From the IMG/VR virus record IMGVR_UViG_3300029116_000014, positions 1 to 42,165 of that record: 42,165 nt of DNA; one strand, 5' to 3'. Origin of the DNA: a virus. This document shows positions 7,034 to 9,857 of the stretch, piece by piece. Both the position numbers and the translations under genes were made by a program. Numbering within the stretch: position 1 is the first letter of the stretch; every line of letters starts with the position of its first letter. Below the pieces are notes generated by a model. It was not told the origin of the DNA, made no database searches, and saw only the letters and a program-made list of their open reading frames with translations.

Positions 7034-7237
7034 ATGAACCTAAAAAAAGATTTGACAAAGGCGGAGTGCGTTAAACTCCGCGAGGAATGCAATTTTACAG
7101 ACGAGGAACGCGCTGTTTTTGACCTGCGGGTCGCGGCGCGTTCTGTCGTTGAAATCTCAATGAGCCTGCACCTGAGCGAAGCAACGGTTTACAGGCGGCT
7201 CAGGAACATCAAGCGCAAAATCGTGAAAGTTTTATGA
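7034..7237 (+). CDS. Small sigma-70 region-4-like HTH regulator
   Basis: 67 aa with LTKAECVKLREECNFTDEERAVFDLRVAARSVVEISMSLHLSEATVYRRLRNIKRKI, a pattern typical of sigma region 4 / LuxR-like HTH proteins. Confidence 0.65.
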   Translation: MNLKKDLTKAECVKLREECNFTDEERAVFDLRVAARSVVEISMSLHLSEATVYRRLRNIKRKIVKVL

Positions 7238-7290
7238 CAGGTTTATACCCTCTCTGCGACGTATAATATAAGCACAGGGAGGGATAAATC

Positions 7291-7641
7291 ATGGCATATC
7301 AGCAGTTTTATCCACAGTATCAACAGCAATATCCACAACAGGCAGCGCAGCAGCCGCAGTACCCACAACATATAGTGCGTCCCGTGGCGAGTATCGAGGA
7401 GGCACGGGCGGTGCAGACGGATTTCTCCGGTGCGCTGACCATCATGCCAGACTTATCGCACGGCTACATTTACACCAAGCAGCTTAATCTGCAAACCGGA
7501 TGCGCGGATTTCGCGGCGTACAGCCGCGTGCAGGACGCGCCGAAGGTGCAGACGGATTATGTAGCACGGGGCGAATTTGACGAGCTTGCGCGGCGTTTTA
7601 ACGCGCTTTGTGACCAACTGGGAGGTGCAAAGAATGAATAA
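7291..7641 (+). CDS. Hypothetical protein with a Q/Y/P-rich N-terminus
   Basis: 116 aa with a GGGAGGG SD. The N-terminus is MAYQQFYPQYQQQYPQQAAQQPQYPQ, followed by a globular-looking domain. Confidence 0.6.
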   Translation: MAYQQFYPQYQQQYPQQAAQQPQYPQHIVRPVASIEEARAVQTDFSGALTIMPDLSHGYIYTKQLNLQTGCADFAAYSRVQDAPKVQTDYVARGEFDELARRFNALCDQLGGAKNE

Positions 7642-7858
7642 CCCGATGATGCAGGTTTTACAGCTGATGCGGAACGGCGGAAACCCTATGACGATGCTGA
7701 ACCAGATGACGGGGAATAATCCGATGGTCGGTCAGCTGATGCAGAGTATGCAGGGGAAAAGTCCGGATGCACTGCGGCAGATGGCGATGAACATCGCCAA
7801 AGAACGCGGCATTGACCTTAACCAGTTTGCGCAGCAGTTCGGTATGAATATCAAGTAA
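7634..7858 (+). CDS. Hypothetical M/N/Q-rich small protein
   Basis: Internal ATG of ORF 7577..7858, preceded by GGAGGTG and overlapping the upstream stop. 74 aa: MNNPMMQVLQLMRNGGNPMTMLNQMTGNNPMVGQLMQSMQ... Confidence 0.55.
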   Translation: MNNPMMQVLQLMRNGGNPMTMLNQMTGNNPMVGQLMQSMQGKSPDALRQMAMNIAKERGIDLNQFAQQFGMNIK

Positions 7859-7966
7859 ATAACTTCTTTTCAGTTTGGACGGGTCTTGACGAAAAACCGA
7901 CGTGATTTTGTCATGTTCGGAGTTCGCGCGGCTCCGTTCAAAATAAACTGAAAAGGAGATTTTCAA

Positions 7967-8716
7967 ATGGATAACGATTTTGCAACCGGGTACGCTCTTG
8001 GTTCTGATAACAACGGCGGCGGCAATGACGGCATGTGGGGCGGTAACGGCTCGTGGATTTTCGCGTTTCTGATCATCGCGCTGATCTTCGGCGGCAACGG
8101 CTGGGGCTTCGGCGGCAACAACGGCGCGGGCTATCAGGGCGCGGTAACGCGCAGCGACCTGTGCAGCGAGTTCAACTTCAACAACCTGTCTCGTTCCGTT
8201 CTCGGCATTCAGAACGGCCTGTGCGACGGCTTTTACAGCACGAACAACGGCATGCTCACCGGCTTCAACACGCTCGGCAGCGCGGTTTCTAACGGCTTCC
8301 ACGGCGTAGACAACGCGATTTGTCAGCTCGGCTACCAGACGGCACAGCTTGCAAACAACACGGTTCAGAACATGAACACCGGTTTTAACGGCGTGACCGC
8401 CGGTCTGACGGCACTCGGCACGCAGATGTCCGGCTGCTGCTGCGACACCCAGAGACAGATGGAACGCGGTTTCTGCGACATCAACTACAATGCCGCTACC
8501 AACGCACGCGACATTATCCAGACGGCGCACAACGACACCGACCGCATTATTGCGCGCCTTGACCAGATGGAGAACACCCGTCAGCAGGAGAAGATCGCGG
8601 CGCTTCAGAACGAGAATCAGGCCTTGAAGTTCGCAGCTTCGCAGGAGGCACAGAACAATTACCTTGTAAACGCTCTGCGTTTTTCCGGCTGCGGCTGCAA
8701 CGCTTGCGGCTGCTGA
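7967..8716 (+). CDS. G/N-rich membrane-anchored protein with a coiled coil and a Cys-rich C-terminus
   Basis: 249 aa with an AAAGGAG SD. Gly/Asn-rich N-terminus, one TM helix (WIFAFLIIALIF), an internal CCC, a coiled-coil segment (QQEKIAALQNENQALK), and a C-terminal GCGCNACGC. Confidence 0.65.
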   Translation: MDNDFATGYALGSDNNGGGNDGMWGGNGSWIFAFLIIALIFGGNGWGFGGNNGAGYQGAVTRSDLCSEFNFNNLSRSVLGIQNGLCDGFYSTNNGMLTGFNTLGSAVSNGFHGVDNAICQLGYQTAQLANNTVQNMNTGFNGVTAGLTALGTQMSGCCCDTQRQMERGFCDINYNAATNARDIIQTAHNDTDRIIARLDQMENTRQQEKIAALQNENQALKFAASQEAQNNYLVNALRFSGCGCNACGC

Positions 8717-8772
8717 GATACGATATTCAGGAGGGGGAGCAATCCCCCTGCCTTTGACAGGAGGGAATAGTT

Positions 8773-9159
8773 ATGGCTTGCAAGCCTGTACAGAAACTTT
8801 GTCCGAACCTGCGTATCTCACAGAGCGTGACCTACGCAAGCGGCGTACTGACGGTAAATATTCCGGCGGGAGATTACCAGAACGGCTGCGTATACGGTAT
8901 CGTCATCGCGCAGAACATTCCGTCAACAACGATCATCGGCGCGCCGGTGGTCATCACGATCGGCGACGGCACGGTAACGTATCCGCTCCTTAAATGCAAC
9001 GGCGCGGCGGCTACCGTGTTCAACCTTGACACGCGGCACAAGTACCTTTGCCGGGTGGTCACTTCGGCAACCGGCGGCAGTTTCCGAATGCTCGGAAATT
9101 CCTGCTGCTCGCACTCTGACGCGCTGCGCTCGATTAACGGAACGGCGGTGACAGTATGA
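8773..9159 (+). CDS. Hypothetical Cys-containing beta-rich protein
   Basis: 128 aa with a GGAGGG SD. MACKPVQKLCPNL... plus an internal CC. No family recognised. Confidence 0.55.
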   Translation: MACKPVQKLCPNLRISQSVTYASGVLTVNIPAGDYQNGCVYGIVIAQNIPSTTIIGAPVVITIGDGTVTYPLLKCNGAAATVFNLDTRHKYLCRVVTSATGGSFRMLGNSCCSHSDALRSINGTAVTV

Positions 9160-9857
9160 GAAGGGGAACAATGATGCTGCTGATGCAGCGAGGCCGCAAA
9201 GAGAACGCATCCCCGGAAGAGTGGAGAATTCGCAAGATGTATCCCGAAGATCGTCACCATTACGGCGTGCGGTATCATTACGGCAACATGGAGCCGTATG
9301 ATTACTATGACGAGCGCATTCACGGCGGCGAACCGGAAATGCGTAGTTACCGCCGCTATTCTGACGGACGCTTTGCGCCCAAGAACAGTGTCGCATGGCC
9401 GAGGTATGACGAGTACCCCGATTACGAGGATGAGATGCGCCCTATTGGCTTTCGCGATGATGACGCTTATATGGGTGATACCTCGTTCGTAGGGGACAAG
9501 ACGCGCGGCTCTGAACGCTCTATGGGGTATGCAGCAAGCGCAAACGCAGGACGCATGACTAAGAGCATGGCGGAGGAATGGCTGCACAGCATGCAGAATG
9601 CTGACGGCACGACCGGCCCACACTGGACTTTCGAACAGTGCAAGCAGGTAATGCAGCAGCGCGGCCTTGACTGTGACCCGGTTGAATTCTGGGTTGCAAT
9701 GAATGCCGAATACTCCGATCGCTGCGCCGTGAATGAGAAGCACGGTATGCGCAGTATCGATTTTTATGCAGACTCAGCCTGCGCTTTTTGGCTGAACGAT
9801 AAGGACGCAGTAAAGGATAAGGAAGCGGCATATTACAAATATGTCGTGAAGCATTGA
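9156..9857 (+). CDS. Hypothetical protein, Tyr/Asp/Arg-rich N-terminal half with a globular C-terminal domain
   Basis: 233 aa with an ATGA overlap to the upstream gene. The N-terminal half is YHYGNMEPYDYYDERIHGGEPEMRSYRRYSDGRF...YDEYPDYEDE. The gene is followed by a strong terminator. Confidence 0.6.
   Translation: MRRGTMMLLMQRGRKENASPEEWRIRKMYPEDRHHYGVRYHYGNMEPYDYYDERIHGGEPEMRSYRRYSDGRFAPKNSVAWPRYDEYPDYEDEMRPIGFRDDDAYMGDTSFVGDKTRGSERSMGYAASANAGRMTKSMAEEWLHSMQNADGTTGPHWTFEQCKQVMQQRGLDCDPVEFWVAMNAEYSDRCAVNEKHGMRSIDFYADSACAFWLNDKDAVKDKEAAYYKYVVKH

Follow-up and report, generated by a model that had tools for sequence, protein, structure and literature searches.

A mobile, conserved accessory gene module in phages of strictly anaerobic gut microbes

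The IMG/VR virus record IMGVR_UViG_3300029116_000014 (the window hereafter, meaning the whole 42-kb stretch that was analysed, 42,165 nucleotides) is a complete temperate siphophage genome that carries six co-oriented genes, P1 to P6, between its endolysin gene and its attachment site (attP). We found that this cassette is one copy of an accessory module, both mobile and strongly conserved, that is carried by phages of strictly anaerobic gut microbes. An earlier reading of the DNA made without database searches (the sequence-only reading) had singled out the six genes, and their open reading frames (ORFs), their flanks and a terminator-like hairpin behind them were all confirmed. It had also called them a co-oriented accessory cassette in the classic moron position next to attP, which holds: the cassette is discrete and, in integrated copies, the last phage block. 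We tentatively propose that the module makes a stalk-and-knob complex, bridged by cysteines or metal ions, that forms late in infection with the predicted membrane protein P4 as its base. In its defining features the module matches no known phage system, newness here meaning no detectable relationship rather than a demonstrated mechanism.

Conservation of the module across phages

Iterative hidden Markov models (HMMs), one for each cassette protein, were run over all ORFs of 96 fetched sequences. P4 was detected in 93 of these, P2 in 90, P1 in 73, P3 in 67, P5 in 44 and P6 in 38, and the order and strand of the detected genes were constant throughout. P2 and P3 precede P4 by about 750 and about 300 nt, respectively, with P2 immediately upstream of P3/P4 in 90 of the 93 loci. 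P3, detected in 67 of these loci, has a positional equivalent in more distant ones, such as L075 and the Butyrivibrio phage Ceridwen. The sequence-only reading placed a regulator at the head of the cassette, which holds only loosely: a P1-like helix-turn-helix (HTH) protein is present in 73 of the 93 loci, about 0.25 to 7.6 kb upstream of P2, and P1 is therefore better described as a putative, loosely linked regulator of the cassette. The cassette genes co-occur massively outside the window phage.

The P4 family is large. Its relatives number more than 7,300 proteins at 90% clustering, and a profile search over 1.84 billion representatives (each standing for a cluster at 50% identity) returned 2,531 at E <= 1e-3, 1,312 at 1e-10 and 273 at 1e-30. 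The IMG/VR contigs that encode P4 number at least 593.

Clustering of the downstream ORFs at loci without P5 or P6 showed that both slots are occupied by alternative families. The P5 slot can hold c1 (phrog_20016), a 140-aa beta protein with a CC pair in 18 of 19 sequences, although the profiles of P5 and c1 showed no detectable relationship. The P6 slot can hold c0 (phrog_28802), of about 185 aa with helical ends and a Tyr/Asp/Arg-rich middle, or a third family, c14; c0/c14 and P6 have a Y/D/R-rich region and a GRFAPKG motif in common. P4 is nearly always followed by a beta protein (P5 or c1) and then by a protein with an intrinsically disordered region (c3, c0 or c14), and the two slots combine freely (c2+c0, c1+c3, c1+c14). 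We take the unit to be five core proteins, namely P2, P3, P4, a Cys-bearing beta protein and a protein that joins a disordered, Tyr/Asp/Arg-rich region to a helical domain, with an HTH protein loosely attached upstream.

Other features recur in or beside the cassette. Genes for homing-type endonucleases, either Cys-rich proteins of about 220-270 aa or, in the Bacteroides phage, HmuI, are found within it or at its edge in several unrelated phages, mostly just 3' of P4 (L013 8816-9487; L068 10877-11698; L086 10913-11560; L096 8428-9222; L098 3931-4551). A small HExxH metallopeptidase-like gene with weak SprT, DUF6782 and IrrE matches lies 3' of the cassette in L041 (11906-12220), L053 (3396-3785), L098 (7431-7895) and 16 other loci; it is annotated 'PolyVal' in the Bacteroides phage and is absent from the window. 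P0063 and P0092 are in-frame chimeras in which the first half of P4 is joined to the end of DUF7841 and P5 is deleted, and they are either natural deletion variants or assembly artefacts.

Carrier phages and their hosts

All matching records are of faecal, rumen or sewage origin. The proteins P2, P4, c0 and c1 and the DUF7841 domain were used as tblastn queries against 50,697 phage records, and no isolate of an aerobic or facultative host gave a match. The three isolated carriers infect Butyrivibrio fibrisolvens (Ceridwen), C. perfringens (XP41-N3) and Bacteroides uniformis (C3_41T2LP). Siphophages of Clostridia that carry P4 include temperate as well as apparently virulent ones. In Ceridwen the lysin gene is followed by a P1-like gene, P2 (E = 7e-25), a P3-like gene, P4 (9e-39), c1 and a c0-like gene. 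This phage has been seen in lytic growth alone, with no integrase reported, and its describers judged it virulent (PMC7372960). XP41-N3 carries P2, P3, P4, P5 and c14 between an antirepressor gene and Gam/Erf genes.

The cassette of C3_41T2LP adjoins RecT/YqaJ genes. It comprises an HTH gene of a type different from P1, an HmuI endonuclease gene and P4 (2.6e-39), together with genes for a beta protein of 180 aa that bears the motif KCCGIFRLMG, a protein combining beta structure with a coiled coil, an Arg/Asp/Tyr-rich protein of 77 aa, a 133-aa DUF7841 protein (5.3e-16) and a PolyVal-type metallopeptidase. None of these partners showed a significant relationship to the P2, P5 or c1 profiles, and the shared G-x-F-R-[ML]-[LM]-G is apparent by eye only. 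The coiled coil of one partner is weakly matched by phrog_473, 'virion structural protein' (E = 1.4e-8).

Some 14 crAss-like genomes also encode P4, and most of these (at least 8) have a gene for DUF7841 no more than about 1 kb away. In these phages, as in C3_41T2LP, DUF7841 adjoins P4, and the two parts of P6 are either separate or in the opposite order. In cr53_1 the P4/DUF7841 pair follows a holin gene and a LysB-like gene and precedes the virion genes, and gp67 passes the DUF7841 threshold. Under table 11 the annotated genes of cr53_1 (L097) at 2898-7939 are interrupted by many in-frame stops, consistent with the recoding of stop codons for which some crAss-like phages are known. In the same genome a gene for a reverse transcriptase lies just upstream of the holin gene. 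In two viruses assigned to Methanomassiliicoccales only a P4 homologue was found (1.3e-14), and it contains CCC twice. The N-terminus of the Bacteroides and archaeal P4 proteins looks P3-like by eye only and is missed by the P3 HMM.

Members of the P5 cluster that are identical or nearly identical to the P5 of the window carry the names Agathobaculum butyriciproducens and Butyricicoccus sp., and the host of the window phage is probably an Agathobaculum or a Butyricicoccus.

Position and mobility of the cassette

The cassette of the window lineage is the last part of the late operon and adjoins attP, and in integrated copies it is the final phage block ahead of resolvase or host genes. The window from 5088 to 9849 is 93% identical at the nucleotide level (blastn) to 7125-11835 of L006, and also to L017, on an unrelated phage backbone. 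This shared block contains the 118-aa gene, small ORFs, the holin and endolysin genes and the cassette, and its edges are sharp, falling at the start of the 118-aa gene and at 9849, just short of the terminator. The other backbone has a Phage_capsid_4 capsid gene (L004, L006), and genes for proteins of 505/510 aa and about 1,900-2,200 aa follow the cassette where the window has its integrase gene; the long protein of that backbone contains Peptidase_M23 where a domain is on record (L004, L102, L103).

Elsewhere the cassette is found in quite different surroundings. It lies between the gene for a MuF-type minor head protein and those for scaffold and capsid (L075, Dulem virus 35), in L013 between the major capsid gene and the connector genes, and in L010 and cr53_1 likewise within head or structural modules. 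The 680-nt gap between cassette and scaffold gene in L075 holds a tRNA gene (12400-12483; Rfam 53.8 bits). A Pfam census of 119 non-redundant upstream neighbours gave no fixed neighbour: these included 8 amidases, 6 holins, 5 minor-capsid proteins, 2 integrase/Xis pairs and many singletons.

The cassette proteins

Scans of all six proteins against Pfam, NCBIfam, PHROGs and PADLOC returned only generic HTH matches, DUF7841 and unannotated PHROGs. P2 to P5 had no match in NCBIfam, PADLOC or the PDB sequences, and sequence and profile searches of the PDB with P2, P4, P5, P6 and c1 found nothing. In PADLOC, weak HTH matches were obtained for P1 alone and none for P2 to P6. No known structural or lysis-accessory family was matched by any cassette protein, and literature searches retrieved no paper on DUF7841, the cassette or Bacteroides uniformis MB20-41, the host of C3_41T2LP, and no proteome of a carrier phage. 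A signal-peptide-like N-terminus was absent from every cassette protein. The sequence-only reading had recognised none of the last five proteins; P2 to P5 are unannotated, and the C-terminal half of P6 is a catalogued domain.

The unusual compositions noted from the sequence proved measurable as enrichments of Q, M, N/G, C and Y/R/D when compared with a baseline of 6.7 kb of the window phage's remaining proteins. The likeness to cross-linked materials is equally real at the level of composition, and the vicinal Cys motifs are conserved.

P1 passes the threshold of PF00196 GerE (25.5 bits, cut-off 23.5, residues 21-63) and falls below those of Sigma70_r4_2 (20.9 bits, cut-off 25.7) and TIGR02937 (23.4 bits, cut-off 42.9). 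Its description as sigma-region-4-like is thus acceptable as a likeness. A sigma-70 factor combines region 2 with region 4; because region 2 is absent, P1 is a stand-alone HTH protein and not a sigma factor. Source annotations name it as CsgD/NarL-family. GerE is likewise an HTH-only protein of about 70 aa. The linkage of P1 to the cassette is only loose, and C3_41T2LP has another HTH in its place.

P2 is 4.6-fold enriched in Q and belongs to the unannotated family phrog_21718. Its N-terminus is of low complexity, about 50 aa form a conserved core (RPVxSxEEAxA..DFdGs..fPD....IYTK....G), and an amphipathic helix lies at the C-terminus; PDB and Pfam gave no match. P3 is enriched in M (7.0-fold), Q (4-fold) and N (3-fold), and its family, phrog_22984, is also unannotated.

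P4 is enriched in C (4.4-fold), N (2.9-fold) and G (1.8-fold) and belongs to phrog_16490 (E = 2e-34), again unannotated. From N- to C-terminus it has an acidic Gly/Asn-rich tail, a transmembrane (TM) helix at about residues 29-46, a Gly-rich linker, a helical domain whose conserved Cys include an invariant CCC, a long C-terminal helix and, last, a tail of the form CxCxxCxC. The strongly hydrophobic 18-residue segment SWIFAFLIIALIFGG (Kyte-Doolittle 2.34) is the sole TM-like segment among the cassette proteins. The single TM helix, the CCC motif and the GCGCNACGC tail picked out by the sequence-only reading are all present in the window protein. CCC is kept in all 52 aligned P4 homologues, the last 15 residues of which hold a mean of 4.1 Cys, and many homologues have a Pro-rich PxPVPAY segment ahead of the tail. 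A model of P4 (AF2, 52 homologues) is all-helical, with the TM helix, three further helices and a long helix at 172-240; its confidence is low (predicted local distance difference test, pLDDT, 47) and no fold search was based on it.

P5 is 5.5-fold enriched in C and has a weak match to the unannotated phrog_31654. Its N-terminal extension bears Cys and is accompanied by a conserved GGSFRMLG..CC motif; 485 homologues were found, and in the alignment of 51 the CC is present in 41 and the first 20 residues hold 2.8 Cys. The Cys-containing, beta-rich protein foreseen from the sequence was predicted by AF2 (51 homologues) to be all-beta, with 8 strands and a pLDDT of 75.9. Foldseek comparison of this model with the PDB gave nothing at E <= 0.001, and the top match was a phage baseplate/tail-fibre chain (E = 0.05). 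Matches in BFVD, past the protein's own small-protein family, fell in the C-terminal regions of tail-fibre, receptor-binding, hyaluronidase-fibre and collagen-repeat proteins, at E values of 1e-4 to 1e-3 and a query TM-score (TMq) of 0.45-0.55 for what is a moderate-confidence model.

P6 has two halves. The N-terminal half contains 16 R, 14 Y, 12 E and 12 D in 120 residues and is probably disordered. The C-terminal half is DUF7841 (PF25223; residues 128-228, E = 3.5e-29, 101.8 bits against a cut-off of 25.2), and among 135 homologues of P6 the domain was present in 119 of the 120 listed.

Transcription and translation signals

No terminator was found between the endolysin stop (6978) and P1. 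The spacer between P1 and P2 contains a perfect TATAAT hexamer with a poor -35; a consensus promoter scan made no call at 7262-7267, and the hexamer is possibly an activator-dependent internal promoter. The hairpin behind P6 is terminator-like in sequence and would close a single late/lysis/cassette transcription unit.

The 108-nt spacer between P3 and P4 folds into a strong leader hairpin (minimum free energy -43.5 kcal/mol, z = -5.8 against shuffles), the 3' arm of which pairs with the Shine-Dalgarno region of P4. Hairpins of differing sequence that pair with the Shine-Dalgarno region (z of -4 to -5) are present in the window-like and L044-like lineages and not in distant cassettes. The leader has no match to an Rfam family.

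Gene content and surroundings of the cassette

All six ORFs lie on the plus strand at or near the positions first proposed, and independent gene calls on metagenomic contigs encoding identical proteins concur, giving 67, 116, 74, 249, 128 and 227 aa (Table 1). The start of P6 is probably that of the gene callers. For P3 the 74-aa ATG ORF is the gene, a mechanically called 93-aa TTG ORF not being the likely one. Upstream lie a holin gene (PF05105) and then an Amidase_2 endolysin gene; the 118-aa gene and two tiny ORFs constantly accompany these two in the window lineage.

Downstream, AGGTGACACA occurs in 4 exact copies against 0.05 expected by chance, arranged as two tandem pairs (9898-9919 and 10162-10183). 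These pairs flank the tRNA-like attP core and are probably arm-type binding sites of the integrase. A gene for a bPH_2 (PF03703) membrane protein (11390-11908, minus strand) lies between the integrase gene and a repressor-like HTH gene according to the annotation of the identical contig L003, and is likely a further accessory gene of the lysogeny region.

Table 1 Features of the cassette and its surroundings in the window
Feature	Position	Strand	Description
Tail genes	up to 5097
118-aa gene	5110-5466		phrog_24451, function not annotated
P1	7034-7237	+	67 aa; stand-alone GerE/LuxR-type (sigma region-4-like) HTH
TATAAT hexamer	7262-7267	+	perfect hexamer in the P1-P2 spacer, read from sequence; poor -35
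P2	7291-7641	+	116 aa; Gln/Tyr/Pro-rich N-terminus
P3	7634-7858	+	74 aa; Met/Gln/Asn-rich, small, helical; ATG start overlaps the P2 stop
P4 leader hairpin	7863-7958	+	in the 108-nt P3-P4 spacer; 3' arm pairs with the Shine-Dalgarno region AAAAGGAG
P4	7967-8716	+	249 aa; predicted TM protein with CCC
P5	8773-9159	+	128 aa; predicted Cys-bearing beta-sandwich
P6	9174-9857	+	227 aa (gene callers); 233 aa with a start at 9156
Intrinsic-terminator-like hairpin and T-run	9863-9890 (hairpin 9863-9882)	+	AGAGGGGGCTTCTGCCCTCT then CTTTTTTGCT
tRNA-like attP core	10060-10135	-
Integrase	10200-11282	-

Discussion

We put forward the stalk-and-knob complex on P4 as a possible, not a probable, account of what the module makes. 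In the window phage, transcription of the module would come last in the late/lysis operon. P4 would insert in the cytoplasmic membrane with its short acidic N-terminal tail outside and its Cys-rich helical domain inside. The sequence favours this topology because the tail is acidic and nearly free of Lys/Arg (a mean of 0.25 K/R and 3.9 D/E across its 31 residues, with 1.1 K/R in the 25 residues past the TM segment), and it would bring the Cys-rich domain to that side of the membrane where the partners, which lack export signals in monoderm and diderm hosts alike, would be. The four partners would then assemble on P4 at the cytoplasmic face, with the low-complexity proteins as adaptors or scaffolds. 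Vicinal-cysteine contacts, whether disulfides or shared metal ions, may hold the complex together through the CCC and CxCxxCxC of P4 and the N-terminal Cys and CC of P5. The knob is suggested by the likeness of the P5 model to the tip regions of tail-fibre and receptor-binding proteins. The complex would act as the lytic cycle ends, within the infected cell, and not on spores or at the surface of a lysogen. What it targets would be shared by very different hosts; the simplest candidate is the cell membrane at the time of exit, and it may instead block re-entry. Late timing is supported by the run from endolysin to P1 without a terminator, by the terminator-like hairpin after P6, by the movement of the lysis genes and cassette as one block and by the placement within head or structural blocks in other phages; most contexts link the module to late or lysis genes. 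In the window lineage the leader hairpin would hide the ribosome-binding site and so gate the translation of P4.

Several points weigh against this account. The P4 model is unreliable at its pLDDT of 47, the topology of P4 is argued from charge bias alone, and the N-terminal regions of the Bacteroides and archaeal P4 proteins are longer (57-85 aa) and would be harder to translocate. Contact between P4 and P5 is unproven, because no P4-P5 fusion was found among the top 150 representatives. The cassettes of C3_41T2LP and XP41-N3 lie beside recombination or early-type genes rather than late ones. In the window, the position at the prophage end, the possible internal promoter and the terminator of its own would also permit expression in a lysogen. 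All components are known here from sequences and models. Finally, the placement in head modules, the fibre-tip-like P5, the weak phrog_473 match and the repeated insertion of homing endonucleases would fit a component of the virion equally well.

Indeed, a virion-associated accessory structure is nearly as likely as the complex at the membrane, although we would still hold it doubtful. P4 would then form a coiled-coil shaft and P5 or c1 a separate knob joined to it through Cys-rich connectors, with P2, P3 and P6 as assembly or attachment factors; such optional fibres, decorations or packaged proteins would help particles to bind or persist in the gut. The model of P5 resembles the tips of tail-fibre, receptor-binding and collagen-fibre proteins, with a baseplate/tail-fibre chain as its top PDB match, and it aligns with the C-terminal regions of knobs such as T7-type tips and those of collagen-like fibres (TMq about 0.5). 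P5 differs from these in being a free 128-aa protein without a shaft, with conserved Cys motifs and no sequence similarity to them, and its model is of moderate confidence. The cassette lies within head or structural modules in L010, L013, L075 and cr53_1 and is constantly co-oriented with late genes, yet its position is not fixed relative to any structural gene and it adjoins recombination genes in two isolates. Partners without signal peptides, the match of phrog_473 to the coiled coil of the Bacteroides partner and homing endonucleases within the cassette all suit a virion role. Existing annotations that label P4 homologues as 'viral fiber' or 'spike' point the same way, but these are automated best matches to coiled coils. 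An 18-residue hydrophobic TM-like segment with Gly-rich linkers on either side would be unusual for a fibre, siphophages, crAss-like podophages and archaeal viruses have no common docking site, and an HTH protein usually accompanies the module.

Expression from the prophage as a moron, from a promoter of its own under P1 and to the advantage of host or prophage at the membrane (by superinfection exclusion, for example, or some other anti-phage activity), appears unlikely. Moron or lysogenic-conversion genes such as bor and lom of lambda and gp15 of HK97 likewise form a co-oriented accessory block in or at the end of the late region. The window cassette lies as they do between late genes and attachment site, or from lysis genes to attP and integrase, with a terminator of its own, and in integrated copies it is the final phage block ahead of resolvase or host genes. 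It also has a perfect -10 hexamer upstream of P2, an HTH protein and a membrane protein, a small HExxH peptidase is often found 3' of it, and its position varies among related phages, as that of accessory and defence islands does. Its promoter is only a candidate, however, and no terminator or other boundary separates it from late transcription. The module is not confined to temperate phages, given Ceridwen (lytic growth only, no integrase reported, judged virulent), and is present in crAss-like phages as well; unlike morons, it is a unit of five or six genes kept across phage families and host phyla, even in an apparently virulent phage. No PADLOC model was matched by P2 to P6, the matches of P1 to PADLOC-DB were weak HTH ones only, and five conserved, mainly low-complexity proteins far exceed the needs of known exclusion systems. 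A purely lysogenic-conversion role is unlikely because of the range of hosts and lifestyles.

The sequence-only reading had speculated that the cassette modifies the spore surface or envelope of a lysogen. A spore coat, exosporium or cell-envelope conversion module with a GerE-like regulator now seems very improbable, and a role specific to spores is ruled out by the host range and lifestyles of the carriers. There is a case for it: P1 is a stand-alone GerE-family HTH protein, XP41-N3 infects a spore former, and Cys-, Tyr- and Gly-rich compositions without signal peptides, which the cassette has in common with Ena and exosporium proteins, fit proteins assembled by the mother cell. Ena, ExsY/CotY and the BclA C-terminal domain also resemble the module in their small beta-sandwich subunits, Cys-rich N-terminal connectors and CC motifs, and their self-assembly fixed by cysteines between chains is a plausible analogy. 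By eye, c1 resembles the C-terminal domain of BclA, and hhalign of c1 against an approximate BclA C-terminal sequence aligned the expected strands, at a probability of only 9.5%, which is not significant. On the other side, the cassette is carried by phages of Butyrivibrio and Bacteroides and by crAss-like phages, whose hosts do not sporulate, P4 alone is present in viruses of methanogenic archaea, and the probable hosts of the window phage are Agathobaculum or Butyricicoccus. No coat, exosporium, sporulation or Ena family was matched in Pfam or NCBIfam, and no Ena-like or BclA-like match was found in the PDB. Unlike the Ena and exosporium proteins, to which it has no sequence or fold match, the cassette is phage-encoded and linked to late genes, and its hosts include non-sporulating bacteria and Bacteroidota. 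In other phages it sits inside head-morphogenesis modules or beside recombination genes. P5 was considered as a subunit of the Ena/DUF3992 or BclA type and rejected, there being no fold match in the PDB.

Two further roles were considered for P4. Like the spanins (Rz/Rz1, or the i-spanin LysB), P4 is, by prediction, bitopic in the membrane; long helices and conserved cysteines are further points in common, its gene often adjoins those of holin and endolysin, and many of its homologues have a Pro-rich segment. A spanin-like role was rejected on the absence of a lipoprotein partner and on the monoderm hosts: no lipobox is visible in any cassette protein, the hosts are mostly Clostridia, cr53_1 has a separate LysB-like gene by its holin gene, and the charge bias of P4 suggests the opposite topology. 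The Cys/Gly tail of P4 as a precursor of a ribosomally synthesised and post-translationally modified peptide, in the manner of microcin B17, was also rejected, as the cassette encodes no modifying enzymes and the protein is 250 aa long.

A more speculative and rather improbable alternative is a cross-linking system triggered by oxygen and specific to viruses of strict anaerobes. The Cys-, Tyr-, Gly/Asn- and Gln-rich proteins would be made in bulk late in infection and stay reduced in the cell and in the anoxic gut; upon lysis and exposure to oxygen they would cross-link through CC/CCC and possibly through tyrosines. The product could be a matrix that protects or adheres, or else fibres of the stalk-and-knob kind borne by particles or pieces of membrane, with a role like that of a spore coat in the passage of the phage between hosts. 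This would explain why the module is present in viruses of Clostridia, Bacteroidota (crAss-like phages among them) and methanogens and was found in no isolate of an aerobic or facultative host.

Whatever its product, the module is widespread. P4 forms about 2,500 clusters at 50% identity, almost wholly on phage-sized gut contigs, and the module is common to prophages of butyrate producers and to crAss-like phages, which are among the most abundant viruses of the human gut; every one of its core families is annotated 'unknown'. A module that stays intact across morphotypes, lifestyles and host phyla must serve something general and important for the life of gut phages, and with three cultured phage-host pairs that carry it the question is directly testable. 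Conserved vicinal-cysteine motifs combined with prion-like or phase-separation-like sequences are unusual in phage proteins and may point to a new assembly chemistry.

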